Positions 7,407 to 56,014 of a stretch of 64,000 bases of DNA are shown one piece after another. The notes under the pieces are model-generated. The model searched no databases and was not told the DNA's origin. It saw nothing but the letters and a program-made list of their open reading frames with translations. Both the position numbers and the translations under genes were made by a program. Source of the DNA: Hyphomicrobiaceae bacterium (GTDB taxonomy: Bacteria > Pseudomonadota > Alphaproteobacteria > Rhizobiales > Hyphomicrobiaceae); NCBI GenBank assembly GCA_020442185.1, contig JAGRKS010000010.1, positions 16,454-80,453 on the forward strand. The letters run 5' to 3'. Position 1 is the stretch's first letter. The number at the start of each line of letters is the position of its first letter.

Positions 7407-7723
7407 TTCGATAGCGTCGCCGGTTGCGGCCGGCCGGAGGCTACGTCTTCAGCGGTAGAGCGCAACTATCGAAGGAGGTCGGTTGCTGTCGCATGCAACC
7501 AACTGGGGTGCCCGGTCGGCGAGGGCAGCACGCTAGGGTCTAAGGGGCTGCATGATGCGGCGCCGGTCGGCATCCGCACGCATGCGACCGCCTGCTTGCC
7601 GAACAATGGGACCCTCGCGTGATGGAGACTTGCGAAGTCCGCACGAAGTTCGTGGACGATGGGAGTGCATCGGCGTGCGATGCCGCTGCGACCGTCAGGA
7701 CGACGTCCGAGGAGCCGGCTGCG

Positions 7724-8464: not shown

Positions 8465-8552
8465 AGGCGCAGGCAACCCTATCGCTGGTGTGCAATCGCG
8501 TCGCCCGACCTTCAGTCGCGTCGTCAGGACTAGGAATCGTCGAGGCGACAGG

Positions 8553-10004: not shown

Positions 10005-10024
10005 AACGAAATGGAAGCACCGCC

Positions 10025-19599: not shown

Positions 19600-19653
19600 G
19601 CCGTCCCGCTGTTGAAGCCAGATAAGCACCGGGCGCCTAGCATGTCTCACCAC

Positions 19654-39962: not shown

Positions 39963-40895
39963 CTACTCCGTGGCCAGGGAATACTTGGCGGTGAACGTTG
40001 CGACCTCCTGACTGAGGCTCGCGCCGGAGCTCGGGCAGGAGACTTCCGCACGCTCCGGCGGAAGCAGTCGCGAACGCGACGCAAGCACGGCACTCGCCAT
40101 TTTGTCTTGCACCGAGCGGCACGTGTTGCTCGACACCACATCTTTCGGCAGAAGCGACGGATCGAGCATCTCGTTGATGCCGGCGAGCAGAACCTTGTAG
40201 GCCCCATCGGCCGTCAGCGCTTTGCGATCGGCGAAGCGGCAGGGGGTGCGCTCGAGTTTGCGCGCGGCACTGCGCCATTCCATGAGCATTGCGATGTTGG
40301 GATCCGCGGCGGCGGCATCCCCCATGCAGGCGGCGAGCGCGCAAAGTGTATCGTCGATGTCGGCGAGGGTCGAGGCGTCGCGCGGAATACTGCGGCGTGG
40401 GCAGGCGCGGTCGAGCGGTGCGATTTCGATGACGGAGGGTGGAGCAAGCGCGGTGACCGCCGCGATCTGTTTGGTGGCGGGCGGTGCAGCCGCGCCCGGC
40501 GGCGATGATCCGACGGGCGGGGCGGCGGCGACGGCCGGTGCCTGCAACGGGGCCTGCAGGGGCGATGATGGCGCCGATGCCACAGGCGCTGCCGCCGGCG
40601 ATGTTGCCGGTGCCGCCGCCTTCTTCAGTCGCGCCGCAGCCTTCTCGATGCTCTCCTCATTTGTAAGGATGGAGCAAACGCGAGCCATGGATGTTGTTCC
40701 ACCGTTCGCACGCGCTTGCGCAACGAGAGGCGCACACAAATCGATATCCAACTTGGTAAGGATCGGCGCGTGAAAGATCGTTGCGAGGCCAGTGAGCACC
40801 GTAGCAAGCGCTCCGAGGACGATACGAAGCGGATGCTTGATGTGTTTCTCGCCGCCTGGCTGCTCCCCGCCCTGCGTCTGCGATGACTTGCTCAT
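39963..40895 (-). CDS. Membrane-anchored protein with TonB/TolA-like architecture (N-terminal TM, Pro/Ala-rich spacer, Cys-containing C-terminal domain)
   Basis: Start ATG 40895 forms an ATGA overlap with the upstream stop. TM: HPLRIVLGALATVLTGLATIFHAPIL. Spacer: APATSPAAAPVASAPSSPLQAPLQAPAVAAAPPVGSSPPGAAAPPA. The C-terminal domain of about 170 aa has 6 Cys and no recognisable TonB_C motif. Confidence 0.55.
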   Translation of the reverse strand: MSKSSQTQGGEQPGGEKHIKHPLRIVLGALATVLTGLATIFHAPILTKLDIDLCAPLVAQARANGGTTSMARVCSILTNEESIEKAAARLKKAAAPATSPAAAPVASAPSSPLQAPLQAPAVAAAPPVGSSPPGAAAPPATKQIAAVTALAPPSVIEIAPLDRACPRRSIPRDASTLADIDDTLCALAACMGDAAAADPNIAMLMEWRSAARKLERTPCRFADRKALTADGAYKVLLAGINEMLDPSLLPKDVVSSNTCRSVQDKMASAVLASRSRLLPPERAEVSCPSSGASLSQEVATFTAKYSLATE

Positions 40896-41338
40896 TTCTC
40901 GTTCCCCGGTCCGCCTTGCAGGCTTACATCCCCATTTTCGCCGACGACCACGCGCAGCGGGCGGCACTTCTGGCGTGCGGCGCACTGATCAAAAACGATA
41001 TCACGCAACATCTGCGCCGTGCCGCCCGTCAACGCGACCTCGAACGTGCCACGCATGCCGCCCGGCTCCGACAGTTCGGCGCAAAAGGGACAGCCGACGT
41101 AGACCGCGCCTGACCAGCCTTCACCGCCGGTCGGTGTCCAGCCGGCGTCCTCGGATTGTGCGAAGCGGGCGCCCGACTGGTCGCGGAATACGAGGCGCGC
41201 GCCCGACTGCGGCAGGTGGTTGGCGGCGAACGTGATCTCGTAGACGTCCTTCTGACTGACCACGATGAGCATCACCATGAGCAGCATCAAAAGGTCCATC
41301 AGGATGACCAGGGGCGGATGCGATCGCGGCGCCTTCAT
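40892..41338 (-). CDS. ExbD/TolR-like protein
   Basis: 148 aa with a single N-terminal TM carrying the family-typical intramembrane Asp (PPLVILMDLLMLLMVMLIVV). The periplasmic domain has 4 Cys. Both ends form ATGA overlaps with neighbouring genes. Confidence 0.6.
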   Translation of the reverse strand: MKAPRSHPPLVILMDLLMLLMVMLIVVSQKDVYEITFAANHLPQSGARLVFRDQSGARFAQSEDAGWTPTGGEGWSGAVYVGCPFCAELSEPGGMRGTFEVALTGGTAQMLRDIVFDQCAARQKCRPLRVVVGENGDVSLQGGPGNEK

Positions 41339-42264
41339 GCTGGTGCGTCCTCAGCGGTCCGCGTCGGGGCAGAGGACGGCCCGTGGCCGCTGAGCCGGGC
41401 CGAGAACGTCGCGTAGACGAGGAGGTTGATGACGTAGATGAGGCCCCCGACGACCGTTGTGGCGGCCGCGTCGAAGAAGGCCTTGCTGAACATTTCACCC
41501 GAGATCACCGAGCCGGCAGACGCCGAAATGAAGCCCGAGAACGCGATCACCGTGCCGACGACACCAAGGATCGGCGGTGCGTTGATGGCCCAGTCGGCGA
41601 ACGAGGCGAGGGTCGGCGTTGCGATCCTGATCGAGGAGATCGACATCGTGAGATTGACGATGCCAAGCCAGAGGACCAGCGACAGGCAGAGTGTCAACGA
41701 CAGGTAATTCCACCACTGCGGACTTTTGACGATGGGGGTGAGGCCGGTGACGAGCCAATCGAGGACTGCCGGATGCGGCGATGCACTCTCTGCGTTTGCC
41801 GTCGTCGCCTTCGTCGACCGGGCGTTGCTGATCGGCTCCTGATCCGTCGTGGCGCCGATTGGCCGGCGCCCGCCGCTAGAGGTGGCGGCCGTTCCGCCTG
41901 GACCGGCGGATGCATCGCTCGGTTCGGCAATCTCGCCCATCAGAATCTTGTGTTGCCGCTCCAGCATCTTGACGCGGGCGTCGAATTCGGTGAGCGACAC
42001 CCGGCCGCCGGCCATGCCAGCGGTTGCTCCGCCAGCGGTTGCTGGACGAGAGGTGTCATGCGGCCCACTCATCGTTCTCCCGCCCTGCGCATCGGGCGTG
42101 CCTCTGGGGGGGGTGGTACGATCGGCCGGCGCGGGCGCCGTCGTGGTCACGGACTGGGGCGCCAGCATGCCGACTGCAACGAGATCGATCATGCCGACCA
42201 GCATGGCCGTCGAGAGCGTCATGGCCGCCAGAGCTGTCACCAGAAGTCCGGCGATACGCATCAT
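41335..42264 (-). CDS. MotA/TolQ/ExbB-family proton-channel-like protein with long N-terminal periplasmic extension
   Basis: 309 aa. The C-terminal 130 aa has three TM segments, with NAPPILGVVGTVIAFSG and AAATTVVGGLIYVINLLVYATF resembling the AP-LG-LGTV and TT-GL motifs of ExbB/TolQ. The N-terminus has a signal/anchor, a low-complexity region and a short coiled coil. Confidence 0.7.
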   Translation of the reverse strand: MMRIAGLLVTALAAMTLSTAMLVGMIDLVAVGMLAPQSVTTTAPAPADRTTPPRGTPDAQGGRTMSGPHDTSRPATAGGATAGMAGGRVSLTEFDARVKMLERQHKILMGEIAEPSDASAGPGGTAATSSGGRRPIGATTDQEPISNARSTKATTANAESASPHPAVLDWLVTGLTPIVKSPQWWNYLSLTLCLSLVLWLGIVNLTMSISSIRIATPTLASFADWAINAPPILGVVGTVIAFSGFISASAGSVISGEMFSKAFFDAAATTVVGGLIYVINLLVYATFSARLSGHGPSSAPTRTAEDAPA

Positions 42265-42857
42265 TCCCCCCGAAACTTGTCGATGTCTTTCGAGATTGCC
42301 GACAGTCCTTCGGTGAAAGCGGCTAGGCGCTTTTCGGACGCCTCCTTCTTGCGCTCGAACGAGCAGGAGTTGGTCATCTGGTTGCGCCAGGTGGCGAGGT
42401 ATCCATGCGTTTCCTCGATCACCGTAAACATTTTCAGCGCAGGCTCACGGCACATCGCGCCATTTTCGCGATCCGAGGACAACCGATCGAGGATAAAGAC
42501 GAGACCGCGGCGCACGCCGCCGCCGGAAAGCACACCCTGGGCCCACTCGTCGCACTGGTCGAGCTTGCTGATCGCGGCAAACCAGTCGCGGACCCAGCTT
42601 GCCGCTTCGCGCTGTTCTGCGGTGGCGGCACACTCCTGCAGTCGAACGATCGCCGCGTTTGGCATCTCGGTGTCGGGGATGGGCTTGGGATTGAAGCCGC
42701 GATAGCCGACCTCGGAGAACGGGCCGGTGCTGCTCGGCGCGGCGCGCGCGGGGAGGTTGAGATGCTCGGCCGATTGGCAGCCGCAGACAACGATACCGGC
42801 GGCGAGGATCAGCATGCTCGCGAAATAGCAACGGCTGCGGTCCCCTCCAGGCCTCAT
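42261..42857 (-). CDS. Putative lipoprotein, unknown function
   Basis: 198 aa. The hydrophobic N-terminus ends in AGIVVCGC (lipobox-like). The mature part has about 5 further Cys. Both ends form ATGA overlaps. Confidence 0.55.
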   Translation of the reverse strand: MRPGGDRSRCYFASMLILAAGIVVCGCQSAEHLNLPARAAPSSTGPFSEVGYRGFNPKPIPDTEMPNAAIVRLQECAATAEQREAASWVRDWFAAISKLDQCDEWAQGVLSGGGVRRGLVFILDRLSSDRENGAMCREPALKMFTVIEETHGYLATWRNQMTNSCSFERKKEASEKRLAAFTEGLSAISKDIDKFRGE

Positions 42858-44545
42858 CGACGTTCCTTGGGCTCGTCGTCGATGATCGTATCGCGAGGCA
42901 CGCCGCCGGAGCGGAGGTCACCCGCGCGGCGCTCCATCTCTCCGTCCGGTTTCACCAGCTTCACCGGCTTCAGGCTGCTGCGCGATACCCAGCCGACATC
43001 GTCGCCGATCTTGACGAAGGCCCACCGCTTCGGCTTCCCCCTCGCGCCATCGGAAGTGGCTCCGGCGTCCGCCGCTTCAGCCTCCTGATAGAGAACGCTG
43101 ACGGGTTGATCCGCAGCCAGCTTGTAGAGGGCCCTGGCCTTGTCGTAGGGGCGCGCGCGCAGGTTCGTGGACGCCGAGATCAACGCCGCGTGGGGCTCCT
43201 CCTGTCCCTTGCCGAGCAGATGCGATAGGAAGCCGCCCTTGGCCTCGGGCTTCGGGTATTCGATGAACGGGCCGATGTCGCTTTCCCGCAGCCAGACGAC
43301 CTCGTTCCGGCCGTGCACTGTGAACTGGCCCCAGTTGACGCCGAGACGCGCGACCCTTTCAAGGGCGTGTCCTGGCTGGACGGCGTAGGTGCCGCCCTTG
43401 TCACCGACGATTGCCGCGGCGATCTCGCGCCTGACGCCGTCATACTCATCGCCCTCCTGGCGCGTGACCGGCTGGGATCGAGGCAGATACGGTGCGGCCG
43501 CGATGGCCTTGCTGGAGATGCCGAGGTCCGTCAGAACCTCCGTCGCGGTCGCGATGACGCTCTTGGCAAGCGGTGCCGACAGCGGCTCCTGCCACTGGCC
43601 GACGATCGCGCCCGTCGACAGGTCGACAAGGTAGCTCGCCCCTTCGAGCGACGTCGCGGCGTCGATCATCGGCAAAGCGAGGATGGGCGCGGGACTGGCG
43701 GCCTCAGCGGTGGCGACCGGCAGGATGCCGGCGCGCAAAAGCGGTACGGACTGAGCCAGCAATTCGCCGGCGGCCTTGCGCTTCCAGAGCGACATGGCGT
43801 TGGCGACGACGAACGCCATCGTTGGCGCGGCGACGGACTGCTCGTCGCCAGACGTTGGCATGGCCTCTTTGACGAGGGCGGCGAGAGCTGCGACCACTTC
43901 GGATGGCGCCGCGGGAAACTGAGCCTGCTTCCACGCGGCCTTGAAGGTGGTGTCGTTACCGACGAGTTCCGCGGCGATGAGCGCTCCCTTGTCGACGAAA
44001 AGCACGCGATAGATCAGGCGGTCACCAGTGCCGAGGGTCAGCGGCGCGATTGCATTCCTGTCGGATTTGCCGATGCGGACCAGCCGGCCGTAGAGCGCCG
44101 CGGTCACGTCCTTGATTGGTCGGGTGCTGTCCGGGGAACTGGATTCGGTGCCGGCGATGGCGTCGGACAAGGCAACGGCGCGGGCGAGCAGACGAAGCGA
44201 CTCGAGCGTGTTCCCGCTCGCTTCTAGCGAGATTGCGTGTTGCAGGGCTTCGAGCACCCGGCTACGGGCGGAAAGCTCACCGGCCGGATCTTTGCCAGAG
44301 GCGGCGATTGTCGCGCCGCGCTCCTGGATCGCGGTGCTGGCAGCCTCGAGGGCGGCACCGGCCTGCTTCGCTGGTGCGGCAGCGGCGGCGGCAATCGCGC
44401 GATCGACGTCGGCCAGCGTGCGTGCTTGGGACGGCTGCGACACGGCCGCGAGACAGGCAACCAATGCCCACGCGATCGCGAGTGTACGAGCCGGAAGCCG
44501 CAACGGAGAGCCGACGAGGAATCTGGACATGCGCTCGGGACTCAT
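42854..44545 (-). CDS. Secreted protein, unknown function, with C-terminal SH3b-like domain
   Basis: 563 aa. Signal peptide: LAIAWALVACLAAVSQPSQA. The Ala-rich helical N-terminal region is followed by a C-terminal NLRARPYDKARALYKL...WAFVKIGDDVGWVSRSSL that resembles bacterial SH3 domains. The start is 2 nt after the upstream stop. Confidence 0.6.
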   Translation of the reverse strand: MSPERMSRFLVGSPLRLPARTLAIAWALVACLAAVSQPSQARTLADVDRAIAAAAAAPAKQAGAALEAASTAIQERGATIAASGKDPAGELSARSRVLEALQHAISLEASGNTLESLRLLARAVALSDAIAGTESSSPDSTRPIKDVTAALYGRLVRIGKSDRNAIAPLTLGTGDRLIYRVLFVDKGALIAAELVGNDTTFKAAWKQAQFPAAPSEVVAALAALVKEAMPTSGDEQSVAAPTMAFVVANAMSLWKRKAAGELLAQSVPLLRAGILPVATAEAASPAPILALPMIDAATSLEGASYLVDLSTGAIVGQWQEPLSAPLAKSVIATATEVLTDLGISSKAIAAAPYLPRSQPVTRQEGDEYDGVRREIAAAIVGDKGGTYAVQPGHALERVARLGVNWGQFTVHGRNEVVWLRESDIGPFIEYPKPEAKGGFLSHLLGKGQEEPHAALISASTNLRARPYDKARALYKLAADQPVSVLYQEAEAADAGATSDGARGKPKRWAFVKIGDDVGWVSRSSLKPVKLVKPDGEMERRAGDLRSGGVPRDTIIDDEPKERR

Positions 44546-44547
44546 CG

Positions 44548-45186
44548 TTAGTTCGTTGGGATAGATTTGTTGCGCGGATCAAATTTGACGAGTGTCCTTT
44601 TGGCTTCGTCAACTTCGCCGTTGAGCTTTTTCTCAAGTTCGTATTTCAAGCGGTCGCGGGCATTGGTGTCTGCTTCCTCCCCGAGAAATTTCACTTCGAG
44701 GGAGACGCGCTCGACAGCTTCCTCGACGCTTGCGAGAACCCGGCTGTGATGCCCCGTCAAGGCGACCATCCGCAACACTTCGGCGCTGCAGTCCTTTACC
44801 CGGGATGAAAGCTGGTTCAGCATTCTCGCGCTCAGGCCAGCTTGTTCGGCACGCGCCTTACGCGACTTGGTCAACTCGCATTCGGCGGCCGTGTTGTTGG
44901 CCTCGACGGCATATTTGCTGAACAGTTCAGCGGTCGCCGCCCATTTTGTGCTGATCGAATTTCCCTCGCCGATGCGCGATTGCATATCGCTGAACTCTTT
45001 GGTCAGCTTCTTGATCCGCTTGTCCAATTCCTGCTGCGACAGGCGCACCGAGCTAGCTGAGGGTGCCGCCGCCGCCGCGCCCGGCGGTTCGCTGCCGGTA
45101 ATGCGGGCGGGCGGCTCCTGCGCCAAGGCCAGCCCGACACCAGCTGAAAACATCATTGCTGTGGAAAGAAGCAGGGTCGCGCGCAT
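44548..45186 (-). CDS. Secreted coiled-coil protein, unknown function
   Basis: 212 aa. Signal peptide MRATLLLSTAMMFSAGVGLALAQ. The remainder is heptad-like and charged, with 2 Cys. Confidence 0.6.
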   Translation of the reverse strand: MRATLLLSTAMMFSAGVGLALAQEPPARITGSEPPGAAAAAPSASSVRLSQQELDKRIKKLTKEFSDMQSRIGEGNSISTKWAATAELFSKYAVEANNTAAECELTKSRKARAEQAGLSARMLNQLSSRVKDCSAEVLRMVALTGHHSRVLASVEEAVERVSLEVKFLGEEADTNARDRLKYELEKKLNGEVDEAKRTLVKFDPRNKSIPTN

Positions 45187-45234
45187 TGCTACACCAATAG
45201 CTTTCTCGAGTTTCCCACGTGACGCCGGAGCGCG

Positions 45235-45801
45235 TCAGTTCACCTTGCCAGGACACATGCGCCGGAGCGCATCGCGATCATCGTCGTAGCCGCTGAGTTC
45301 CTGCGAGAGCTTGTCGCGCTCATCGCGACACGTCGAAGCCAGCGCGGAACCCTGGCGGGCGCTGCCGCAACTCTGCTCGAGGCTGGTGAGCAGCTTGCGG
45401 GTATCCTGTTCCTGCCGAGCGATGCCTTGGAGGACACTCGCCACGCCGCCGCACTTGCCTTCCGCGATGATGTCAGTCAGCTGGGCACGCGCAATCCTGA
45501 AGCGCTGGGCGCTCTGGCGAGCCTGGTTGACCATCTCCCGCAGGGTCTCGCGCTCCTTTTCGATGGCGTTCGCGGCGTCCTGATCCTTGATGTCGTCGAG
45601 GACACCGGCTGGGCCGCGGCGGGTAGCACCCTGGCGGGGTGGCGCCGGCTCGGCCGTCGCGCCGCCAGCGGGTGCCGCTTGCGCGGGCTCATCGGCTGGC
45701 GGTGGCGGATTGGACTGCGCGGTGCTGACGCGCGCCAAGCCGGTCATCAGCACGAGACCGAGGATGATGGCCGGAACAGCAGTCGGTTTCTTCGAAAACA
45801 T
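45235..45801 (-). CDS. Secreted coiled-coil protein, unknown function
   Basis: 188 aa. Signal peptide AVPAIILGLVLMTGLARVSTAQ, then a Pro/Ala-rich linker, then helical charged sequence with 4 Cys. Confidence 0.6.
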   Translation of the reverse strand: MFSKKPTAVPAIILGLVLMTGLARVSTAQSNPPPPADEPAQAAPAGGATAEPAPPRQGATRRGPAGVLDDIKDQDAANAIEKERETLREMVNQARQSAQRFRIARAQLTDIIAEGKCGGVASVLQGIARQEQDTRKLLTSLEQSCGSARQGSALASTCRDERDKLSQELSGYDDDRDALRRMCPGKVN

Positions 45802-45816
45802 GGGCCTTCCTGACGC

Positions 45817-46515
45817 TCAGTTGATGTTCGAAGCCGGCGACGCGAGACGCGCCGCGTCCGGCGGCTCCATGCGTTCTGCGGTCTCCTTGGGCGGGGCCCG
45901 GCCGGAAATGCGCAGAAACAGCACGTCGCCGATGTGCACCAATCCCGACCACGACAGCTCCGAGGGGAATTCGGTCTTGTAGAAGGTGATCCGCTCGCGA
46001 TCGACGAAGACGGTGTCCTTGTCGCCGCAACGCGCGCGCTCGCGGAATTGGTCCTTGGGGACAGGCTCGTAGCGGACGGGCAGACCTGGGATGTCGTCAC
46101 GTACGGCCTGTGTCGCGCCAACCGCGATCTCGGCGGGGAAAGCGGCGGCGGTATCTTTGACGAGGCGTGCGTGCAGCAGGCTGGCATCGATAGCGTTGCC
46201 GCGCCATGCCTTGGCGTTTTCACCGATCGCCCGCAGAGCATCCTTGAACGATGCCGTCAGGTATGGCGCCTTCGCTGGCATGCGGTAGGCAATGCAGATC
46301 GGCAGCGCCTTGGCGAGCGAGCGAACCTTCATCATTTCGAAGCGCCGTTCGACCGATGCGACCTCCGTGCCACCGCTATTGAGTGCGTCGCGAATGGAGT
46401 TGGTCTGCAGCGGCGCTCCGTTCGAGGATGCGCAGCCCGCGATCGCGAGGCCGGCACCGACAACGACGGCGGCAGCTGGCGTCAGGTGCAACCGGGCGCG
46501 CATTAGGGATCGCAT
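45817..46515 (-). CDS. Putative lipoprotein, unknown function
   Basis: The maximal ORF runs to 46584. ATG 46515 (MRSLMRARLHL...) gives a classical lipoprotein signal ending in the LAIAGC lipobox. Confidence 0.6.
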   Translation of the reverse strand: MRSLMRARLHLTPAAAVVVGAGLAIAGCASSNGAPLQTNSIRDALNSGGTEVASVERRFEMMKVRSLAKALPICIAYRMPAKAPYLTASFKDALRAIGENAKAWRGNAIDASLLHARLVKDTAAAFPAEIAVGATQAVRDDIPGLPVRYEPVPKDQFRERARCGDKDTVFVDRERITFYKTEFPSELSWSGLVHIGDVLFLRISGRAPPKETAERMEPPDAARLASPASNIN

Positions 46516-46640
46516 CCGGCCGCCTGCGGCTCGAACGCCCCGTAATGCAACGATGCCAGTGCCTGCCTTGCCTTCGATCCCCATCGCTGTTGTCTGCCCC
46601 TTTCGGCATGTTCGTGCGAACCAAGGAACGTCATTCCGGC

Positions 46641-47516
46641 TTAAAGCGTTGCTTGTTGCCCAGCCTGCTGCGGCTGCACGAGCCAGTTGCCATCGGCTTG
46701 CTTGCAGCCTCGGAACGTACCTTCTTCGGCCTTCTGCCCGCCCTTGAGGATCTCGTAGTTCAGGTCGCGGCAGGTGGTGGTGACGGAGACGTCGCTCGCG
46801 ATCATGCCACTGCCGGCCACAGGTTCGGCCGTTGGCGCTGCCGCGGTAACGATCGTGGACATCGGCGCATTCGCGGACGGAGTGAGTTTGCCGGATGCAA
46901 CGTAGCCGACCGTGACGTTGTTGCGACTGACGACGTACCAGGGTTGTCCGGTGACCTGGCCGACGACCATGATCTCCTCACCCTTCTTGAGATGGCCGAC
47001 ACTTGTGCCGCCGGAACCCGGCCGAGAGCGGATGTCGGATTTGCCGTTGGCGCGGTAGGACGCCGCGATGAGATCGAGTCCCGGCGGCGCATCTACGATG
47101 GAGGGCCGCAACATGCGGGTCTGCGAGACATAAGATTGCGGCGCGTTCGGCGTGTAGTTGGCGACGGCCGATTGATCCGGCGTGGTCCAGGTGTGCTTCT
47201 GGCCGGCCTTGCCTTGGCTCATTCCGAGCGCGAACTTCTGATGGGCGATGCGACGATTTTCGGGACTCAAGGAGTGGCCGATCTCGTAGCCGATCATCCC
47301 GCCGATGGCCGATCCGATGAGCGCACCTGCGATCATGCCGCCGCGACCGCCAAAATGCCGCCCGATAGCACCGCCGACGACGGCACCCGTGACCATGCCT
47401 GTCCCTTGGCCGACCTGGGCAGTATTCCCGCCAGCGCATCCCCCGAGGGCGAGCGTGGCACCGCATAGCAATATTATCGAGCGGTGTTGCCACCGCTTTG
47501 CTGCAATGAATTGCAC
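46641..47516 (-). CDS. Lipoprotein with glycine-zipper (17-kDa surface-antigen-like) segment and SH3b-like domain
   Basis: The maximal ORF starts at GTG 47558. GTG 47516 gives (M)QFIAAKRWQHRSIILLCGATLALGGC, a textbook lipoprotein signal. Gly-zipper: GAVVGGAIGRHFGGRGGMIAGALIGSAIGGMIG. SH3b-like: IRSRPGSGGTSVGHLKKGEEIMVVGQVTGQPWYVV. Confidence 0.7.
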   Translation of the reverse strand: MQFIAAKRWQHRSIILLCGATLALGGCAGGNTAQVGQGTGMVTGAVVGGAIGRHFGGRGGMIAGALIGSAIGGMIGYEIGHSLSPENRRIAHQKFALGMSQGKAGQKHTWTTPDQSAVANYTPNAPQSYVSQTRMLRPSIVDAPPGLDLIAASYRANGKSDIRSRPGSGGTSVGHLKKGEEIMVVGQVTGQPWYVVSRNNVTVGYVASGKLTPSANAPMSTIVTAAAPTAEPVAGSGMIASDVSVTTTCRDLNYEILKGGQKAEEGTFRGCKQADGNWLVQPQQAGQQATL

Positions 47517-47948
47517 GCCTACCCCCCCACAATGACGCTTGCGCACCCCGTAACGCACCGTTCCCGGAATTAACTATTCGATATCCAACTTATCGCCGTC
47601 AACATCCATTTGACTGAGGAGGCTTCGCGATCCGCTCGCAGTCTCTGACGGCACACACTTCACATGGGGGGGGCTCGTCACATTGGGGCTGCGAGATTTC
47701 GCATAAACGGGGGTGGCATCAGCTTCACCAAGTTCTCTTCCGGCTAGGTCTGCCATCTCGTGGTCCAACGAGCATGCCGCCGCCAGTCGGAAGGCATAAC
47801 GGTCTACGTTTCAATGCAATTTCCGAGATCGCGGCCGACGACAATGCCAACCGGAAGATGGCCGATTCTGTCCGGGCGACGACCCGCCCCGCAACAGGAT
47901 CGAGAAGGCCGACCGAGATACTCGAGATGCGGCGATGGGCTTGCCGCA

Positions 47949-49406
47949 TCAGCCAACGAGCTTTGCGACACTGCTCAACGTCAGTGCGTCGAGGCCGTCG
48001 ACATGAAGGTCGCCACGGCGCTTCACGATCGAGTCGTCGTCGCGCAGCAGGAGGTTGAGAAGCGTGCCCGCGACCAGCGTGCCTCCGACTGGTCCCAGTC
48101 GGCCTCCGAATGCCTCGGCTTCTGCCAGCACATAGAACCATAGAGGCGTCTGGTCGAGTTGGGCGTCGATGACCTTTTGATGCTTGTCGATTGGGTGGAC
48201 GCCGAGGGCTTCCGCCACGACCTCGCCATAGGGCAGCCGGAAGGTTTGCTGACCACGCTGCATGTTCCGGAAGGGCAGCGAAACCGGACCGCCGTCGGCG
48301 ACACGATCGGGGAGGTTGAGGAGCGTGTCGGCGATGCGGGTGTCGATCTGGCGGGCGAATTGCACCTTGCCGTCGCCGTGGTCGAAGAAAAGATTCCAGT
48401 CGATGTTGTGGTCGGCCGGCACGGCCTGGAAGCCTCCGAGGTCGAACAGGCGGACGCGCCGAGATGCGTTGACCATGTAACTGCCGCGCACCTGCGAATG
48501 GCCAAACCGAAACGCCGCCGCGGAAAATTCAAAGGGCATGTCGGGCGCTTCGTCCCAATTGTACGGGCCGGGCAGCTTGCCATTCCAGAAGCCTTCGAGA
48601 AGCGGACGGAGAACGTCGCCGTCGACGATCGCCGGCAGGTAGTCATCGACGATTATGCCCTGGTAGACGTCGCGAACCTTTCGCTGCGCGCGAGCGAAGT
48701 GCTCCGCGGTCGGGTCGCTTCCGCCCGTCATGTCGTCCAGGATGAAATTGTGCAGTCGCAGGAACAGGCCATGGAGCTGCGAAATGAACAAATTTTCGTC
48801 ATTGCGAGGGTCGCCGATCAACGCGACGTCGGCGTTGTTGCGGGGAAGGTCGCGTGGATTGCTGCTGGTTCCCGCCACGAGGTGAAAGCGCCGGTCGTAG
48901 AGGAAGGGGAACATGCCGGGGCCGCTTCGATAGACGGAATCGAGTTCGAGGCGCGGCGTGCGGAAGTTCGGGAGCTCCTCGTCGTTTTGTTCCGTTATGC
49001 CGAGCTTGCTGATCGTTTCCAGCGTAAGGTCATGATCGATGAACTGGCCAAGAAACGTCATGCCGGCTGGTATGGAGCTGAGGCCGCTGGCGTCGTCCTG
49101 CTGCTCGCGCATGGCATTGGCAAGTGCGGCGAGTTTCTCGTCGCTCGGCTGTTCTTCCTGCCGCGGGAACATGCGTCCGAACACGTGCTCCGTTGCTCTC
49201 AGCTTCGCCACGGTTCGAGGATCCGATGTCTCTGCTGCCTCGATTTCAGGCCGGTCAGGCTTCAAAATTCCCTGCAGCCTTTCGAGAAAGGCGCCGTGTC
49301 CATTCGACATATCGAACAACTCCATTCGGTTATAGTGCAACGGGCGTGGGCTGGCCATCGCAGACGGAAGCTGATGCCGCCGCGCCGAAGAAATCGTGTG
49401 TTTCAA
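47949..49406 (-). CDS. Animal-haem-peroxidase (peroxidase-cyclooxygenase) superfamily protein, short bacterial form
   Basis: 485 aa. FLGQFIDHDLTLE (distal His region) and SAAAFRFGHSQV (proximal His region) are signature motifs of PF03098-type peroxidases. The start could be one of several in-frame ATGs. Confidence 0.85.
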   Translation of the reverse strand: MKHTISSARRHQLPSAMASPRPLHYNRMELFDMSNGHGAFLERLQGILKPDRPEIEAAETSDPRTVAKLRATEHVFGRMFPRQEEQPSDEKLAALANAMREQQDDASGLSSIPAGMTFLGQFIDHDLTLETISKLGITEQNDEELPNFRTPRLELDSVYRSGPGMFPFLYDRRFHLVAGTSSNPRDLPRNNADVALIGDPRNDENLFISQLHGLFLRLHNFILDDMTGGSDPTAEHFARAQRKVRDVYQGIIVDDYLPAIVDGDVLRPLLEGFWNGKLPGPYNWDEAPDMPFEFSAAAFRFGHSQVRGSYMVNASRRVRLFDLGGFQAVPADHNIDWNLFFDHGDGKVQFARQIDTRIADTLLNLPDRVADGGPVSLPFRNMQRGQQTFRLPYGEVVAEALGVHPIDKHQKVIDAQLDQTPLWFYVLAEAEAFGGRLGPVGGTLVAGTLLNLLLRDDDSIVKRRGDLHVDGLDALTLSSVAKLVG

Positions 49407-49796: not shown

Positions 49797-50507
49797 TTGT
49801 TGGTTGATGATCGAAGTCGATTGGCGGAAATTCCGCTGTTCGCCGGAGTCGACCCTCTCGTCGTCGGCGAAATTGCCAACCTATTTTCTGTCCGCGATTA
49901 CGCGGCCGGAAGTGAAATCGTCCGCCACCTCGAAGATGACACCGACGTCTATTTCGTTCTCGCCGGCCGGGTTAAGGTCCGGATCTATTCCTGCCAAGGA
50001 CGGATTGTTGCATTCCGTCAGATTGAATGCGGCGAAATTTTCGGCGAGTATGCGGCCCTCGACGGGACGCCACGATCCGCGAGCGTCGAGGCGGAAATCG
50101 ACACACGTGTGGCGGTGCTGAGCGCGGCGGATTTCAATGCGATCGTTGCTGGGCATTCCTCGATCGCGCAGGCTCTCATCCAGCAACTGGTCAAGCAGAT
50201 CCGGGACTTGACAGTGCGCTATTCGGAGCTTTCGACACTGGCCGTCAACGGCCGCATCGAAGCGGAGTTGCTGCGAATTGCGCGACACGACGGCCAGACG
50301 GTCCAGGCGGAGCCCAACAAGATCCTGATCAAGACACCGCCGACACAATACGAGCTTGCCAACCGGGTCAGTACGCATCGCGAGGCTATCAGCCGCCACT
50401 TGAGCCACCTGAGCAGAATTGGACTGATCCGGCGGACGCGACACGCGCTGGTCATCGAGGATATGCAGCGCCTGCAAGAGATGGTTCAGCGGTCCGGTGC
50501 CGATTGA
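49797..50507 (+). CDS. Crp/Fnr-family transcriptional regulator
   Basis: 236 aa with a TTG start. cNMP-binding-like domain: IPLFAGVDPLVVGEIANLF...GEIFGEYAALDG. C-terminal HTH: ELANRVSTHREAISRHLSHLSRIGLI. No N-terminal Cys cluster, so it is not an FNR-type O2 sensor. Confidence 0.9.
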   Translation: MLVDDRSRLAEIPLFAGVDPLVVGEIANLFSVRDYAAGSEIVRHLEDDTDVYFVLAGRVKVRIYSCQGRIVAFRQIECGEIFGEYAALDGTPRSASVEAEIDTRVAVLSAADFNAIVAGHSSIAQALIQQLVKQIRDLTVRYSELSTLAVNGRIEAELLRIARHDGQTVQAEPNKILIKTPPTQYELANRVSTHREAISRHLSHLSRIGLIRRTRHALVIEDMQRLQEMVQRSGAD

Positions 50508-50818: not shown

Positions 50819-51116
50819 TTCAACCGTTGTGGCATGGAGCCTTTTCGGAAACGTGCGGTGTGGACGACTGTTGATGTGGTGACGCCCTGCCTGACCACAC
50901 CTCAGGCAGGGCGGATCCTTTGATTTCGATGGGGTTGCAGTTTTAAAAATGTGCCGGTTCAAAGCCGCTTCGAAAAACTGCTTCGAGGTGGGGCCTGCCG
51001 CACGGAAAATCCGCTTCGCGGCACTTCGACTGCCGGTAAGCGTGCGATTGCGGTTCCAGGGAATGGGCCCTAAGGTTTTCGCCCAGGGGAGCTGTTGCGT
51101 GGTGGAGGGTGGTCGC

Positions 51117-52823
51117 ATGAGCTTCGTGGCACGGAATTCCATTCTGCTCGCGCGTAGCTTCTGCGTGGCTATATGTCTTTTGGCCATCGGGCCTGGCAAG
51201 TCGGTTGCCGACGACGTGAAAAGTTCGGTTGTCGACACCGATCAAGGGCAAGCCTGGACCAGGGAACTGCGCGAGCAGTTCTACAGTCTCGACCAGGGCT
51301 CGCGCATCATTCCGCTCAGCTGGTTGATGGCGCTGAAGCTGCCGGATGGTCGCGATTTCCTCCACGACAACTTGGCGCGCTACGGATATCTGCCCGCCGA
51401 CAAGGGACTCTATCGACTACCGATCGGCTTCACGGCAGCGGGACCGTTCGGCGAGGAAATGGTCGGCATGACGTGTGCGGCCTGCCACACGCGGCAGATT
51501 TCAGCCGGTGGGCGGACATTTCGCGTCGATGGCGGGCCGGCCTTCGCCGACTTCCAGGCCTTCGTCGCCGATCTCGACACGGCGGTGCGGAGGGTGATCG
51601 ACGACCCGCATGCCTACAAGGCGTTTGTCCGGGATGTGTTGGGGCCGAACGTCGGGACGGCAACCGAGGACAAGCTGCGCTGGTCACTCAGTCAGTGGTA
51701 CTACCGTTTCCACACGCTGATGGAAGGCTCTCTGCCCCGGAACGTCAAATGGGGCGCTGGCCGGCTGGACGCCGTTGCCATGATCTTCAATCGTCTGACA
51801 GGGCTCGACCTCGGGCCGGCGCCACACTTCATTATTGCTGACAATATCGTACCCGCCACCGCACCTGTCCGCTATCCGTTCCTTTGGAACACGCACCGCC
51901 AGGAGGTCGTCCAGTGGACCGGCATCGCCGACAACAAGACGCCTTTGCGTGTCTTGGCGCGTAATGTCGGGCAAGCATTGGGGGTGTTTGCCGAATTCGT
52001 TCCAAAGAAATCCCTGCAGCCGAATGGCGACTACGTTTTCGATCTCTTTGCTGTCAACTCCATCCAATTCGGCAACCTCAAGAAGCTCGAAAAGCTGATG
52101 TGGGCCATCGGCCCGCCCAAGTGGCCGTGGCCAGTCGATCAGGAGCTTGCCGAACGCGGCGCGCGAATTTTCGGTGTCGCGTGTGCCGGCTGTCATGGCG
52201 CACGAGAGGTGGGAGGGTTCTGGGAAACCAACGTATATGTGGTGGGGACAGATCGCAGCGCGGTCCGGCTGCTCCTGCGAGACGTCGATACCGGGGTCTT
52301 TGCCGATGCCGGTTTTGCCCGGCGCGAACCAGCCGCAAAGGTTCTGCAGCTGACCGCGGGTGCACTGGCCGCGTCTTCGGAGCAGCGTGACGACAGCAGA
52401 ATGCAGATCCTCGCCGGTCCGTCGCAGCTGCGTACGCTGGAGGTCAATCTGCAGTTGCTGCGCACCAATACGCCACCGCCACCTGACGCTGCAGGGCCTC
52501 GTCAACGTCAGCCCGGTGGGTACGTGGCGCGCGTCCTGCACGGTGTCTGGGCGGCGGCTCCCTTCCTGCACAATGGCTCCGTGCCGACGCTCAGGGATCT
52601 ACTGAAGCCTCCGGATGAGCGCCCGGCAGAATTCGCGGTCGGCGCTGACTACGATCCCGTTGCAGTCGGTCTGGCGGCCAAGCAGTCGGGGCGCGCGACA
52701 ACGATGACCACGACGGGGTGCCACGATCTCGATTCGGGCAACAGCCGTTGTGGACATGCATTCGGAACCGAGCTTTCTCCAAGTGAACGGGATGCTTTGA
52801 TTGAATACCTGAAGACGTTGTAA
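51117..52823 (+). CDS. Secreted di-haem cytochrome c, CCP/MauG/RoxA-like
   Basis: ORF track gives 50949..52823. ATG 51117 opens a signal peptide (MSFVARNSILLARSFCVAICLLAIGPG). Two CXXCH motifs (CAACH, CAGCH) and APFLHNGSVPTLRDLL, which is typical of the bacterial di-haem peroxidase superfamily. Confidence 0.8.
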   Translation: MSFVARNSILLARSFCVAICLLAIGPGKSVADDVKSSVVDTDQGQAWTRELREQFYSLDQGSRIIPLSWLMALKLPDGRDFLHDNLARYGYLPADKGLYRLPIGFTAAGPFGEEMVGMTCAACHTRQISAGGRTFRVDGGPAFADFQAFVADLDTAVRRVIDDPHAYKAFVRDVLGPNVGTATEDKLRWSLSQWYYRFHTLMEGSLPRNVKWGAGRLDAVAMIFNRLTGLDLGPAPHFIIADNIVPATAPVRYPFLWNTHRQEVVQWTGIADNKTPLRVLARNVGQALGVFAEFVPKKSLQPNGDYVFDLFAVNSIQFGNLKKLEKLMWAIGPPKWPWPVDQELAERGARIFGVACAGCHGAREVGGFWETNVYVVGTDRSAVRLLLRDVDTGVFADAGFARREPAAKVLQLTAGALAASSEQRDDSRMQILAGPSQLRTLEVNLQLLRTNTPPPPDAAGPRQRQPGGYVARVLHGVWAAAPFLHNGSVPTLRDLLKPPDERPAEFAVGADYDPVAVGLAAKQSGRATTMTTTGCHDLDSGNSRCGHAFGTELSPSERDALIEYLKTL

Positions 52824-52891
52824 TAAAATCGGGCACAAGCTCTGAACATCTGTGTGCGGTCAATATTTCGTCGCGCGCACTTTGGGTGGAC

Positions 52892-55800
52892 ATGCCTATT
52901 CCAGGGTTCGATGCGAGCACGAGCGGACCGCCTTTGACCGGGCGTCAAAGGCGTTTTCTGGTCGTCATGTTCGCCGATCTTTCGCATTCGACACGGCTGT
53001 CGGCCGAGATGGAGGCCGAGGACTACGCCGAACTGCTCGATGAGCTTCGCGCGAAATACGATCATGTCCTCGAGCGACATGGCGGCATGGTCTTTCGTGT
53101 GCAAGGTGATGGCCTGCTTGCGTGCTTCGGCTACCCGAATGCCAGGGAGGATGACGCGCGAAGAGCCGTCGAAGCAGCACTTGAACTGCATCAGGCTGTC
53201 GCGACGCGCAACCCTGACGGCCGCCGCTTGTGTCTGCACACCGGCATCCATGCCGGGCTCGTATTGCTGGCGCCGGGGGACGATGTCAGCGGCCGGCTCG
53301 TGCTGTTCGGTCAGGCCGTCAACATTGCAGCGCGCCTGGCAGATGTGGCGTTGGACGACGAGATCCTCGCAAGCCAGGATTCGCTCGGGGCGGAATGTCA
53401 CTTTTTCGAGACCGACGCCGGCCGGGTCCTGAGCCTTCCGGATATCGACAAGCCGATTGCGGTCTGGAGCATCCGCAAGAAGGCCAATGTCGCAAATCGC
53501 TTCGAGGCCCGTTCTCTGCGCGGGTTGACGCCGTTCGTCGGACGCCACGACGAATTGCGCCGTCTCGGGAGTCGCATGGACGCGGTCGTGAGTGGCTCGG
53601 CGCATTACCTGGCAATTTCGGCTCCGCCCGGGCAGGGAAAATCGCGATTGGCAGATGAGTTCATTTCACGCCTGGATCACGATCGCATTCACGTCCTCCG
53701 CGGCTACTGCGAGAGCTATCTGAGCGCCCCGCCCCTGCAACCATTCCTTCAGATGCTGCGGTCGATTTGCAGGATCGAATACAGCATGTCGGCCGCCGAC
53801 GCCCGGGAAGCGGTTCGGCGAACGCTGGCGCAGATCAGTCCATCCCTGACCCATCATGCTCCCTCGTTGTTCGCCGCATTGTCCTACGAGAGTTCGACGG
53901 AGGGTGAGGAGGGGGGCGGTGCGCAACAGGCGAGCGTCGCAAGCGGAGCGGCGTTCTCGGCGCTCTTCGATGCACTTGCTCTAGAGCGGCCGTTGTTGAT
54001 TTTCATCGACGACTGGCAATGGGCTGACGATGCGACGCGGCAGCTGTTGGCAGGAATCCGCGGCCGAATAGAACGTTCGATCTGCGTCGTCGTGGCGACT
54101 CGGCTCGTCAACTTCGAGGGCGTGGAACTGGCCGGTGCGGAACGCATTTCGCTGAAACCTCTTCGTGACGAGGAGTCCGACGCAACGATCAAGACACTGC
54201 TGCAGTCGGCAAACACGTTCGAAATTTCACAGATCCGCGAAGAAGCAGGCGGGAACCCCTTGTTTCTGGAGGAACTGTGTCATTCGGCATCGCAGCGCAT
54301 GCCGCGCCATCAAGCCACGGGGACGAGTGGCGCATCGGCATGGCTCAGCAGGCTACTTGCAGCGCGCGTTGAGCGCCTCACGACCGAGCATCGCGATATC
54401 GTGCGCACGGCTGCCGTCATTGGCAACGTCATACCTGCAAGGGTTCTCGAGATCGTGTCGGGTGCGTCGGGCCTCCAGGCGACGATGTGCGAACTGTCGA
54501 ATCTTGATGTCATACATCCAGCAGAGCAGCTTGGGATGTATCGTTTCAAACATGGGATTGCGCGCGAGGCGATCTACGAGACGGTTGGTGCGCGTGAACG
54601 CCAGATCCTGCACTTGCGGATTGCCGAGGCCCTCGAGGGATTGGCCGCTCTCGGGCAAACGGAGTTGTTACACGAGCAATTGGCCTATCATTATGCCGCG
54701 GCCGCCCGATGGACAGAAGCCGCGAAATATTCCGAACGCGCCGGGGACAAGGCCATCGCGGCCTCGGCGCTCGATCGTGCGCAGGCCCAATATCAAGCTG
54801 CCCTCGACGCACTGGGCCGCACAGAACTGACCCAAGAGAATTACGTGAAGTGGCTCATGATCGCGCGCCGCCTGGGTCTCGTTTGTGTTTTCGACCCATC
54901 GGCAGAGCATCTCGATGTCCTCATGCGTGCGATTGAAGTGGCCAGGCGTTTCAACGATGAAAATGGCTTGGGGCACGCCGAATACTGGGTCGGGTATGTC
55001 TATTACGGGCTCGGCGACTTCAAGCGTGCGACCATGCATCTCGAAGTCGCCCTGGCGCGGGCGCAGCGGCTCGGAGATGCCTCCCTCATGAAGTGGTGCG
55101 GCGCAACTCTCGGGCAAGCGTATGCCGCGGCGAGTCAGTACGACCGCGCGTTGGACCTGCTCGGCCAGGCCATCGACGAAAAGCGACGCCAGAAGCGCAT
55201 GACGAGGCCGGCCGTCGGGTATGCCTATTCGCTCGCGTGTCAGGCATCAGCCTTGGGTGACCGCGGCGAATTCGACGCCGCGGCGGAGTGTTTCCGGGAG
55301 GCACTACAGGCGGTCGAGGGGGCCGGACACGAAGTCGAGGGATCGATCTGCTGCTGGCAGAGTGGCGTGCAGCTCTGGCAGGGGCGGTGGCAGGATGCGT
55401 TGGACAGTTCGCGGCGCGCCCAACGTGTCGCCGAGCGCGTCAAGAGTCTCTACCTCTATGCAATGAGCCGTTCGCTCGGCGGATATGCAAGTTGGAAGCT
55501 CGATGGCCGTTCGGATGCGCTGCAGACGATCCTGGAATCCACAGCCTGGCTGGAGCGCGCAGGCAAGGCCCTGTTCATTTCCCTCAACTATGGCTGGCTC
55601 GCCGAGATCCTTGTTGCCAATCGCCTGCAGCATGCCGGACGGCAGTATGCCGCGCGAGCGCTCGGGCGCATCCGTAGTCATGACCGCATCGGTGGTGCGA
55701 TGGCGTTCCGGGCGATGGCGCAGGCCGCAGCCTCAGGCCGCTACCATAAGACATCAGAACACTATTTGAGGTTGGCGGCGGAGAATGCCGCTTTGCGTCA

Positions 55801-56014
55801 GTCGCCACACGAAATCGTGGGCAACGCCATGTGCGCGGCAGAAATCTTGTCGAATGCGGGGGAAGTCGCCCGGGCGCGCGAACACTATGAGCAAGCTCTG
55901 TACCTTTCGAATAGGCTCGGAATGACGTGGCATGCTGAATTGGCAAGCGCGCATTTGAACGGACATTTGCGCCAGATAGCAGGGCTTCCAGCACCGGTCG
56001 CCAAGCCGCTCTAG
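52892..56014 (+). CDS. Class III adenylate/guanylate cyclase domain - AAA/STAND NTPase - TPR-like repeat protein
   Basis: Cyclase domain: RRFLVVMFADLSHST, FRVQGDGLLACFGYP. P-loop: ISAPPGQGKSRLADEF. The long C-terminal part is helical repeats. GTG 52886 or ATG 52892 could be the start. Confidence 0.9.
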   Translation: MPIPGFDASTSGPPLTGRQRRFLVVMFADLSHSTRLSAEMEAEDYAELLDELRAKYDHVLERHGGMVFRVQGDGLLACFGYPNAREDDARRAVEAALELHQAVATRNPDGRRLCLHTGIHAGLVLLAPGDDVSGRLVLFGQAVNIAARLADVALDDEILASQDSLGAECHFFETDAGRVLSLPDIDKPIAVWSIRKKANVANRFEARSLRGLTPFVGRHDELRRLGSRMDAVVSGSAHYLAISAPPGQGKSRLADEFISRLDHDRIHVLRGYCESYLSAPPLQPFLQMLRSICRIEYSMSAADAREAVRRTLAQISPSLTHHAPSLFAALSYESSTEGEEGGGAQQASVASGAAFSALFDALALERPLLIFIDDWQWADDATRQLLAGIRGRIERSICVVVATRLVNFEGVELAGAERISLKPLRDEESDATIKTLLQSANTFEISQIREEAGGNPLFLEELCHSASQRMPRHQATGTSGASAWLSRLLAARVERLTTEHRDIVRTAAVIGNVIPARVLEIVSGASGLQATMCELSNLDVIHPAEQLGMYRFKHGIAREAIYETVGARERQILHLRIAEALEGLAALGQTELLHEQLAYHYAAAARWTEAAKYSERAGDKAIAASALDRAQAQYQAALDALGRTELTQENYVKWLMIARRLGLVCVFDPSAEHLDVLMRAIEVARRFNDENGLGHAEYWVGYVYYGLGDFKRATMHLEVALARAQRLGDASLMKWCGATLGQAYAAASQYDRALDLLGQAIDEKRRQKRMTRPAVGYAYSLACQASALGDRGEFDAAAECFREALQAVEGAGHEVEGSICCWQSGVQLWQGRWQDALDSSRRAQRVAERVKSLYLYAMSRSLGGYASWKLDGRSDALQTILESTAWLERAGKALFISLNYGWLAEILVANRLQHAGRQYAARALGRIRSHDRIGGAMAFRAMAQAAASGRYHKTSEHYLRLAAENAALRQSPHEIVGNAMCAAEILSNAGEVARAREHYEQALYLSNRLGMTWHAELASAHLNGHLRQIAGLPAPVAKPL

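Follow-up and report, generated by a model that had tools for sequence, protein, structure and literature searches.

A nine-gene envelope operon with a divergent ExbB-like gene in a Hyphomicrobiaceae bacterium: candidate for an ion-driven envelope-spanning machine

The operon, its conservation and its rarity

The DNA analysed here, called the window throughout, is a stretch of 64,000 nucleotides from a Hyphomicrobiaceae bacterium (GenBank assembly GCA_020442185.1, contig JAGRKS010000010.1, forward-strand positions 16,454 to 80,453). Its subject is a run of nine minus-strand genes, g1 to g9 in order of transcription, which an initial annotation of the sequence had put forward as a candidate envelope-spanning machine. 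In the list of open reading frames (ORFs) of the window, nine consecutive ORFs fill positions 39963-47558 (Table 1). The junctions were read directly and are exactly as that annotation gave them, with ATGA start/stop overlaps at 42854-42857, 42261-42264, 41335-41338 and 40892-40895 and a 2-nt spacer between g4 and g5 at 44546-44547. The other gaps measure 56, 15 and 48 nt, and no credible terminator-like site was found between the nine genes. The further claim, that all nine products are exported or anchored by signal peptide, lipobox or membrane segment, held when the sequences were read directly and their orthologues checked: a lipobox is present in g1, g2 and g6, a cleavable signal peptide in g3, g4 and g5, four hydrophobic segments in g7, and g8 and g9 are each anchored by one N-terminal segment. 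With blastp the nine proteins showed no paralogy, and no Rfam RNA family was found between 39500 and 49800.

Table 1. Genes of the operon and the candidate promoter (positions in the window)
Feature	Coordinates	Strand	Length	Description
g1	46641-47558	-	305 aa	Lipoprotein, lipobox LALGG|C41
g2	45817-46584	-	255 aa	Lipoprotein, lipobox LAIAG|C51, no known domain
g3	45235-45801	-	188 aa	Secreted; Pro/Ala-rich N-terminus, then helical coiled-coil-like region, 4 Cys
g4	44548-45186	-	212 aa	Secreted helical coiled-coil-like protein, 2 Cys
g5	42854-44545	-	563 aa	Secreted; signal peptide, SH3b-like C-terminus (sub-threshold)
g6	42261-42857	-	198 aa	Helical Cys-rich lipoprotein, motif WVRDWFAA
g7	41335-42264	-	309 aa	Probable divergent MotA/ExbB/TolQ-like channel subunit, four hydrophobic segments
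g8	40892-41338	-	148 aa	Like ExbD/TolR in position and in its N-terminal helix with Asp15
g9	39963-40895	-	310 aa	Bitopic inner-membrane protein; anchor, Pro/Ala-rich linker, Cys-rich helical head
Candidate operon promoter	47573-47602	-		Sigma-70-like TTGACG, 18 nt spacer, AATAGT

The true start of g1 is probably the GTG at 47516 and not 47558, since a G-rich Shine-Dalgarno sequence precedes it and the signal peptide of 27 amino acids (aa) is then like that of the orthologue. For g9 the start is the ATG at 40895 and not the GTG at 40985 that opens the longest ORF, and the 310-aa form was also given by independent gene callers. The sigma-70-like site lies 15 nt 5′ of the longest g1 ORF. No second one occurs in 8.5 kb, but the site is no more than suggestive since 1.1 of them are expected by chance over that length. 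A 19-nt direct repeat, ACWAWTCGATATCCAACTT, was also seen, with 17 of 19 positions identical. One copy (40736-40754) lies inside g9, and the other (47573-47591) covers the -10-like element 5′ of g1. As chance alone would give about 0.2 pairs of this kind in 8.8 kb, the repeat may be a coincidence.

All nine proteins have orthologues, with unchanged gene order and 32-64% identity, on an independent 9.2-kb metagenome contig from a public sequencing run (L002; 57% for g1, 62% over 171 aa for g2, 45% for g3 and 42% for g4). Since each of the nine ORFs has its same-order orthologue there, all are taken as real genes. Either g5-g9 or g6-g9 recur in six further lineages (L001, L005, L007, L009, L012 and L013), among them a metagenome-assembled genome (MAG) of a Hyphomicrobium sp. 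The more distant contig L013 has the order g5′-g6′-g7′-g8′-g9′, and C-terminal fragments of g4 lie at the contig ends of L007 and L001. The overlapping junctions are likewise present in the short contigs and in the Hyphomicrobium MAG. Synteny beyond the ExbB/ExbD-like pair, on which the initial annotation had staked its proposal, was found in all of these lineages, and we regard it as very probable that the nine genes form a real and conserved envelope operon.

The genes are thus kept together in a small number of bacteria from soil and water, and the family is very rare. A word-index search with g7 gave only seven clusters of 90% identity among 5.8 billion proteins, to which a second such search with alignment A2 added only P0108. 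A scan of 185,579 species genomes matched the Hyphomicrobium MAG only, and a scan of JGI metagenomes gave one 2.3-kb contig. No copies were found on viral contigs, phages or plasmids. The flanks differ in every genome, being folD, trpA and accD in L001 and, in L002, a C-terminal tyrosine-recombinase fragment of 110 aa (1-330, minus strand; …HATLQEVSRYTKAA…) that lies beside g1 and runs to the contig end. The fragment is a hint that the cluster may occur at the border of an integrative island; no tRNA was found on L002 with ARAGORN.

Some distant relatives of g7 sit on contigs too short for gene context, and three others could be placed. L026, a gammaproteobacterial MAG of 40% GC, encodes a g7 homologue that falls into one 90%-identity cluster with a protein named as from Candidatus (Ca.) Parabeggiatoa. 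Its run of eight genes (6400-11114, plus strand) ends in a g7/g8 pair. The six genes before the pair encode two proteins with signal peptides, of which one has a Tat-like RRKF motif, two secreted coiled-coil proteins bearing Cys, and two lipoproteins. The run appears to be a distant form of the system, present here in a large sulfur bacterium. A lipoprotein gene followed by g7-g8 was found on L014, a short contig of 25% GC, and g7-g8 followed by genes for a lipoprotein and secreted proteins on L016, a contig of 27% GC. No g9-like gene lies 3′ of g8 in L026 or L016.

A patchy distribution of this kind, with flanks that vary by genome and a recombinase fragment beside the operon in L002, is also what an accessory, horizontally moving system of envelope defence or competition would leave, Zorya-like in spirit but with all its components extracytoplasmic. 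The integrase and STAND-like genes around the g7/g8 pair of L016, the toxin-antitoxin, TPS and AAA_35 genes around that of L026, and the slightly raised GC of the operon (64-66% versus ~62%) point the same way. We nevertheless hold this explanation to be improbable. PADLOC gave no match to ZorA/ZorB or to any other defence family, the operon encodes no nuclease, NTPase or other cytoplasmic effector, and the searches of phages, plasmids and viral contigs were negative. Within the window no tRNA was found, a repeat search gave no island boundaries around the operon, and neither an integrase nor flanking repeats bound it.

The motor-like pair and its partner proteins

A g7 profile run against 1.84 billion representatives returned 125 proteins at E≤1e-3, only five of which were below 1e-30; the remaining relatives are 200-250 aa long, and the contigs examined have 25%-40% GC. 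The C-terminal core common to these relatives reads SDWAINxPPILGVLGTIxSF...FFDAAxTTIIGGxxYVINL, corresponding in g7 to DWAINAPPILGVVGT(238) and FFD(265)AAATT(270)VVGG, and G234, A266, T270 and G273 are invariant in 52 sequences. Pfam MotA_ExbB was weakly matched by 13 of 52 relatives (best E 4.6e-5), and the three PF01618 matches that were inspected, at 13.8-18.5 bits against a gathering score of 22.9, cover profile positions ~42-109, which is the hairpin of transmembrane helices 2 and 3 (TM2/TM3). Alignment of g7 with E. coli ExbB by hhalign was not significant (E=0.11) but in register, placing T238, D265 and T270 on T148, E176 and T181, and MAFFT likewise pairs the three residues with these pore residues of ExbB. 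In a MAFFT alignment of ExbB, TolQ and three bridging proteins G144, G147, T148, A177, T181 and G184 were invariant.

Structures were predicted with AlphaFold2 (AF2) for g7 and g8. When the g7 model was searched with Foldseek against 350,542 PDB chains, nearly all of the top ~30 matches were ExbB or TolQ, at E-values of 0.25-1.6, none of them significant, and TM-scores of ~0.2-0.3 (for example 2.6-2.8 Å over 77-83 columns). The sole relevant match among PDB sequences was B. subtilis MotA at E=0.8. With E. coli ExbB and TolQ as phmmer queries against 135 retrieved proteins, scores did not exceed 10.7 bits. Of the ExbB likeness claimed for g7, the pore motifs in register stand while a direct family match is lacking and the transitive link is mostly sub-threshold. 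We consider it likely that g7 is a genuine, if extremely divergent, member of the MotA/ExbB/TolQ superfamily.

Hydropathy analysis of g7 shows four hydrophobic segments. The termini are very short and so is the loop from TM2 to TM3, and the only large loop is that between TM1 and TM2. If the conserved hairpin keeps the orientation of ExbB this loop faces the periplasm, and g7 would then appear to be without a cytoplasmic domain, its loop being probably periplasmic. The loop (aa ~35-165) has about 60 extra residues of low complexity, rich in Pro, Thr, Ala and Gly, relative to the orthologues of 244-248 aa, and in most of the distant relatives it carries a conserved Cys pair. A public gene call of 226 aa (P0001) begins inside the loop and loses the conserved first helix. 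The conservation of that N-terminal helix indicates that the 309-aa form is the correct one and not the database call.

g8 always overlaps g7, here by ATGA. Its N-terminus, MKxxxxPPLxIxMDLLMLL, forms a single N-in helix with Asp15 near the cytoplasmic end, and this residue is invariant in eight orthologues. The position is acidic in all eight members of the extended family, Asp in seven, L014 and L026 included, and Glu in one, the partner encoded at 7777-8262 (plus strand) of L016 (APQIMVMFEIL), and is thus retained in organisms from 25% to 69% GC. A conserved Asp is the hallmark of the transpore helix of ExbD, TolR and MotB (PMC12204202), and both the adjacency of the gene to g7 and the helix agree with an ExbD/TolR-type partner. 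The periplasmic domain has four invariant Cys (83, 86, 119 and 125) and was modelled as beta-rich with one long helix, at a predicted local distance difference test score (pLDDT) of 77. The model resembles no ExbD or TolR structure, and the domain is predicted to be novel and not ExbD-like; the ExbD likeness claimed for g8 is in this way upheld for its position and its membrane Asp. That g7 and g8 together are homologous to proteins of the MotA/ExbB and ExbD/TolR kind is nonetheless held to be probable.

An alignment of five g9 orthologues (A6) gives an N-terminal anchor, a Pro/Ala-rich linker of 60-80 aa and a helical head in which five Cys are invariant (C185, C190, C219, C259 and C287). The order of anchor, Pro-rich linker and C-terminal domain is that of the TonB and TolA transducers, and to this extent the TonB architecture ascribed to g9 was borne out, without the domain or the anchor motif of TonB. 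A His lies before the helix in four of five sequences, neither aligned nor conserved.

Among the nine proteins, names from curated libraries could be given only to g1 and, weakly, to the C-terminus of g5. g1 has a glycine-zipper 2TM domain at aa 54-94 (Rick_17kDa_Anti, 25.4 bits against a cut-off of 24.2), an SH3_3 domain at aa 176-223 (35.8 bits against 27) and a small C-terminal domain with 2 Cys. With its lipobox and a glycine zipper over the Pfam cut-off it belongs with the glycine-zipper 2TM lipoproteins (PF05433), and its description as a Gly-zipper/SH3 lipoprotein was confirmed. The orthologue on L002 has both domains too, with the glycine zipper at 24.8 bits and a lipobox LLTGC. According to two preprints, SlyB and YfgH are glycine-zipper 2TM lipoproteins that stabilise the outer membrane (bioRxiv 10.64898/2026.06.08.730324, 10.64898/2025.12.22.696046). 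The g5 C-terminus matched SH3_3 at E=9.4e-4 and three orthologues gave 0.012, 0.11 and 0.19 (SH3_6), all sub-threshold; the g5 profile had no match among PDB sequences, and outside its SH3b-like C-terminus the protein appears to be novel. g5 has no conserved lipobox Cys, and a signal peptide was restored in two loci once ORFs shortened by the gene caller were extended. The SH3b-like modules of g1 and g5 are presumed to bind peptidoglycan. g6 lies directly upstream of the motor-like pair in every locus, with orthologues in L001, L002, L005, L007, L009, L012 and L013. In E. coli a lipoprotein lacking Asp at +2 is directed to the outer membrane, and since none of g1, g2 and g6 has Asp at that position all three would go there by this rule.

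For g2, g3, g4, g6, g7, g8 and g9 no match beyond noise was found in Pfam, NCBIfam, PADLOC or PHROGs; g3 gave only weak Pfam noise of the coiled-coil type, and the single PADLOC match of the set was a spurious Cmr5 on g6 (E 0.0094). This is the reverse of the statement that only the motor-like pair resembles a nameable family, as it is the pair that has no direct match. The four libraries, PDB sequences and, for g7 and g8, PDB folds place the set in no described system, as had been proposed. Candidate identities were rejected for T9SS GldLM/PorKLMN and Agl-Glt, for a type IV secretion system (NCBIfam VirB3 and TraP matches at E>0.04, taken as noise) and for TagV of the type VI secretion system (E 0.0065, over the SH3 region only).

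A number of results weigh against a motor, in addition to the non-significant hhalign and Foldseek values of g7 given above. g7 does not match Pfam PF01618 even at E≤1 and has no match in NCBIfam, PADLOC or PHROGs, and its orthologues have no precomputed Pfam domains; its link to MotA_ExbB appears transitive. Searches of PDB sequences by phmmer and profile hmmsearch (g7, g8 and alignments A1, A2, A3 and A5) gave no match to ExbB, ExbD, TolQ or TolR. The AF2 model of g7 is poor (mean pLDDT 56), and the proposed topology would rest on hydropathy, on the Cys pairs of distant relatives and on the orientation required for the hairpin. Foldseek of the g8 model against the PDB gave no ExbD, TolR or MotB among 347 matches and nothing at E≤0.001, g8 and its orthologues have no match to PF02472 or in NCBIfam, and hhalign of g8 with E. 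coli ExbD returned a single column (D15-D25, E=0.17), which is uninformative. In g9 and its orthologues Pfam and NCBIfam detect no TonB_C or TolA C-terminal domain, and the anchor has no SHLS motif, no conserved His and no invariant residue at all. The motor assignment is in sum built on several agreeing weak signals and not on one significant test. Finally, the sparse distribution and, in other genomes, the flanks resembling islands suit an accessory role more than Tol-like housekeeping.

The same statistics would be expected if g7 and g8 were no motor but structural membrane anchors, convergent in their resemblance to ExbB/ExbD through helices rich in Gly and Thr and an Asp placed by chance, in a passive periplasmic and lipoprotein scaffold or a stress-response complex: all direct similarities are non-significant and most MotA_ExbB matches of the relatives fall under the 22.9-bit gathering score. 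Convergence would however have to account for weak signals that agree in register, the Pfam matches falling on the same hairpin on which the Thr, acidic and Thr residues line up, for ExbB and TolQ coming first among all chains searched with Foldseek, and for the acidic helix residue kept by the partner gene in organisms so different in GC. We consequently give this explanation little credence.

The proposed machine and its surroundings

On balance the nine genes are read as encoding, with a probability of roughly 0.55, an ion-driven, envelope-spanning machine. Among known systems its logic would be closest to that of Tol-Pal. The earlier interpretation as a candidate envelope machine is in this way partly supported, the observation beneath it being confirmed. 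In the inner membrane g7 and g8 would form the ion-conducting unit and g9 a partner that spans the periplasm. The periplasmic tier would consist of the disulfide-bearing helical proteins g3 and g4 and of the large g5, ending in its SH3b-like module, and the lipoproteins g1, g2 and g6 would form with these periplasmic proteins a module associated with peptidoglycan and the outer membrane. The SlyB-type glycine-zipper hairpin of g1 may insert in the membrane while the SH3b modules of g1 and g5 hold the peptidoglycan. Ions passing through an oligomer of g7 arranged around g8, a flow that may be energised by the proton-motive force, would produce conformational or rotary work, which the periplasmic domains of g7, g8 and g9 would relay to the module bound to peptidoglycan and outer membrane. 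Since g7 is apparently without a cytoplasmic domain and its large loop probably periplasmic, all output would be extracytoplasmic. The outcome could be tethering or remodelling of the envelope rather than TonB-dependent import; a function in tethering or remodelling specifically of the Tol-Pal kind, argued by analogy, is rather unlikely. The analysis establishes the operon, its conservation, the export signals, the motifs and the architecture; the oligomer, the ion coupling, the contacts between the tiers and the biological role are all features that we infer.

Going further, g7 and g8 might found a new class of ion-driven MotA/ExbB-type motor in which a periplasmic domain takes the place of the cytoplasmic one. 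Such a class would be wired to novel disulfide-bonded periplasmic proteins and lipoproteins, be distinct from Ton, Tol-Pal, Mot, Gld/Por, Agl-Glt and Zorya, and have its remote versions in the Ca. Parabeggiatoa-like gammaproteobacterial MAG and in low-GC organisms. This proposal is tentative, and the odds are somewhat against it.

The surroundings of the operon in the window bring in another explanation. Downstream lies Tex, convergent with the operon and standing between it and exopolysaccharide (EPS) genes on the opposite strand; the DNA of Tex is about 68% identical to Azospirillum chromids. An EPS locus adjoining the operon had been reported, and it is present beyond Tex, but that description is incomplete. 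A hybrid polyketide synthase-nonribosomal peptide synthetase (PKS-NRPS) of 2779 aa (KS-AT, aminotransferase, C-A-PCP) lies there too, together with a stand-alone A-PCP and a C-PCP-TE protein. The PKS/NRPS genes are at 21846-30185 (plus strand), 19918-21849 (plus strand) and 15291-17978 (minus strand), and the polysaccharide genes include a Wzx-like gene (18025-19653), a Wzz-like gene (9806-11776) and a sugar transferase (31019-31987). Because PKS-NRPS and NRPS genes stand among those for polysaccharide, the locus looks like a mixed lipopeptide/glycolipid and polysaccharide cluster.

With such neighbours, the operon could alternatively encode a Ton-like energised transporter or secretion device, in which g7, g8 and g9 do not serve tethering but power the passage of a substrate, be it the polysaccharide, the PKS-NRPS product or a protein, over the outer membrane or periplasm through a conduit of lipoproteins and periplasmic proteins. 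The anchor, Pro-rich linker and head of g9 are the layout of a force transducer, and non-TonB transducers on TolQR-like motors are already described (PMC12204202). Yet Pfam and NCBIfam detect no beta-barrel, TonB-dependent receptor, secretin or ABC component among the nine genes, the loci next to it do not accompany the operon in L001 or L002, and Tex separates it from the EPS genes. A transporter seems to us quite unlikely, and the machine proposed above is preferred.

On the upstream side of the operon lie genes for a protein of the animal haem peroxidase family (47949-49406, minus strand), a Crp/FNR regulator (49797-50507, plus strand) and a RoxA-like multihaem cytochrome c (50949-52823, plus strand), which are not conserved beside the operon in other genomes. 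Two further genes of the window were recorded in passing. One, at 52886-56014 (plus strand), encodes a 1042-aa protein with adenylate/guanylate cyclase, AAA_16 and TPR (MalT-like) parts, a STAND-type signalling architecture; the other, at 59457-62123 (minus strand), an 888-aa protein with a class-3 lipase domain and a C-terminal subtilase (Peptidase_S8) domain.

To our knowledge ion-driven 5:2 motors (Mot, Ton, Tol, Gld, Agl and Zor) are the only means by which energy is delivered to the periplasm and outer membrane of Gram-negative bacteria, and each new client system of such a motor has so far revealed new envelope biology. The operon combines a motor-like pair that every curated model misses with seven partner proteins. 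If the proposed reading is true, the limits of the MotA/ExbB superfamily in sequence and architecture would be extended, seed alignments would be at hand for annotating ~125 orphan protein clusters, and a compact nine-gene system would be available for the transfer of force to lipoproteins bound to peptidoglycan and the outer membrane. The rarity of the operon limits its general physiological importance.

Comparison with known systems

A literature search found no described equivalent of the nine-gene system, and the comparison is therefore made with systems that resemble parts of it. In Zorya (ZorAB with ZorC/D or ZorE) a MotAB-like unit senses perturbation of the envelope. The operon is similar in that a MotAB-type unit seems to be repurposed in a patchy accessory locus, but there is no PADLOC match, no long cytoplasmic ZorA tail and no cytoplasmic effector, all nine products being extracytoplasmic or membrane proteins. 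The lipoproteins SlyB, YfgH and Pcp are like g1 only, by the lipobox and a glycine-zipper 2TM domain above the Pfam cut-off; g1 adds SH3_3 and the 2-Cys C-terminal domain and heads an operon with a motor-like pair.

The cytoplasmic domain follows TM1 in ExbB and TolQ and lies between TM2 and TM3 in MotA. g7 differs from all three in that no sizeable cytoplasmic domain is apparent between its helices, as judged from hydropathy and from the side assigned to its loop. In a stator phylogeny of 2025 the non-flagellar homologues are sorted by condensed cytoplasmic domains of two or three helices (PMC12505986), and its categories include none for a member without a cytoplasmic domain, as g7 seems to be. 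With Ton (ExbB-ExbD-TonB) the operon shares the equivalents of T148, E176 and T181 in g7, whose best structural matches, none of them significant, are ExbB/TolQ chains, the ExbD-like N-in helix of g8 with its Asp, and the three-part layout of g9. It differs in lacking matches to PF01618, PF02472 and TonB_C, in the fold of the g8 periplasmic domain, in the missing SHLS of g9 and in having no TonB-dependent receptor nearby.

Conceptually the closest precedent are the vWA-headed transducers of Williams-Jones et al. 2025, which are encoded in operons with a TolQ/TolR-like motor and consist of a transmembrane helix, a disordered linker rich in Pro and a head domain that is not of the TonB type (PMC12204202). 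The concept of a motor operon with its own transducer is shared, whereas every component differs. The head of g9 is Cys-rich and helical and not vWA, their motors can be recognised as homologues of TolQ/TolR whereas all curated models miss g7 and g8, and a TPR gene stands where the nine-gene operon has its set of lipoproteins and coiled-coil proteins.

Tol-Pal (TolQ-TolR-TolA-TolB-Pal-CpoB) differs from the operon in several respects. Pfam and NCBIfam detect no TolB beta-propeller, OmpA-like Pal, TolA_C or TPR CpoB among the nine proteins, the motor genes come last in what is a reversed order, the lipoproteins number three and the periplasmic proteins likewise three, and g7 seems to be without a cytoplasmic domain. 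Tol-Pal is moreover near-universal in Gracilicutes (PMC12204202), whereas the nine-gene operon is extremely rare. What the two have in common is a single operon that combines a channel of the MotA/ExbB type (a probable one in the case of g7), a small bitopic partner bearing an Asp and an anchored protein that spans the periplasm. Both also have soluble periplasmic proteins, coiled-coil ones included (compare CpoB), and a lipoprotein with a module of the peptidoglycan-binding type, SH3_3 in g1 in place of the OmpA-like domain of Pal, and neither encodes an outer-membrane barrel.

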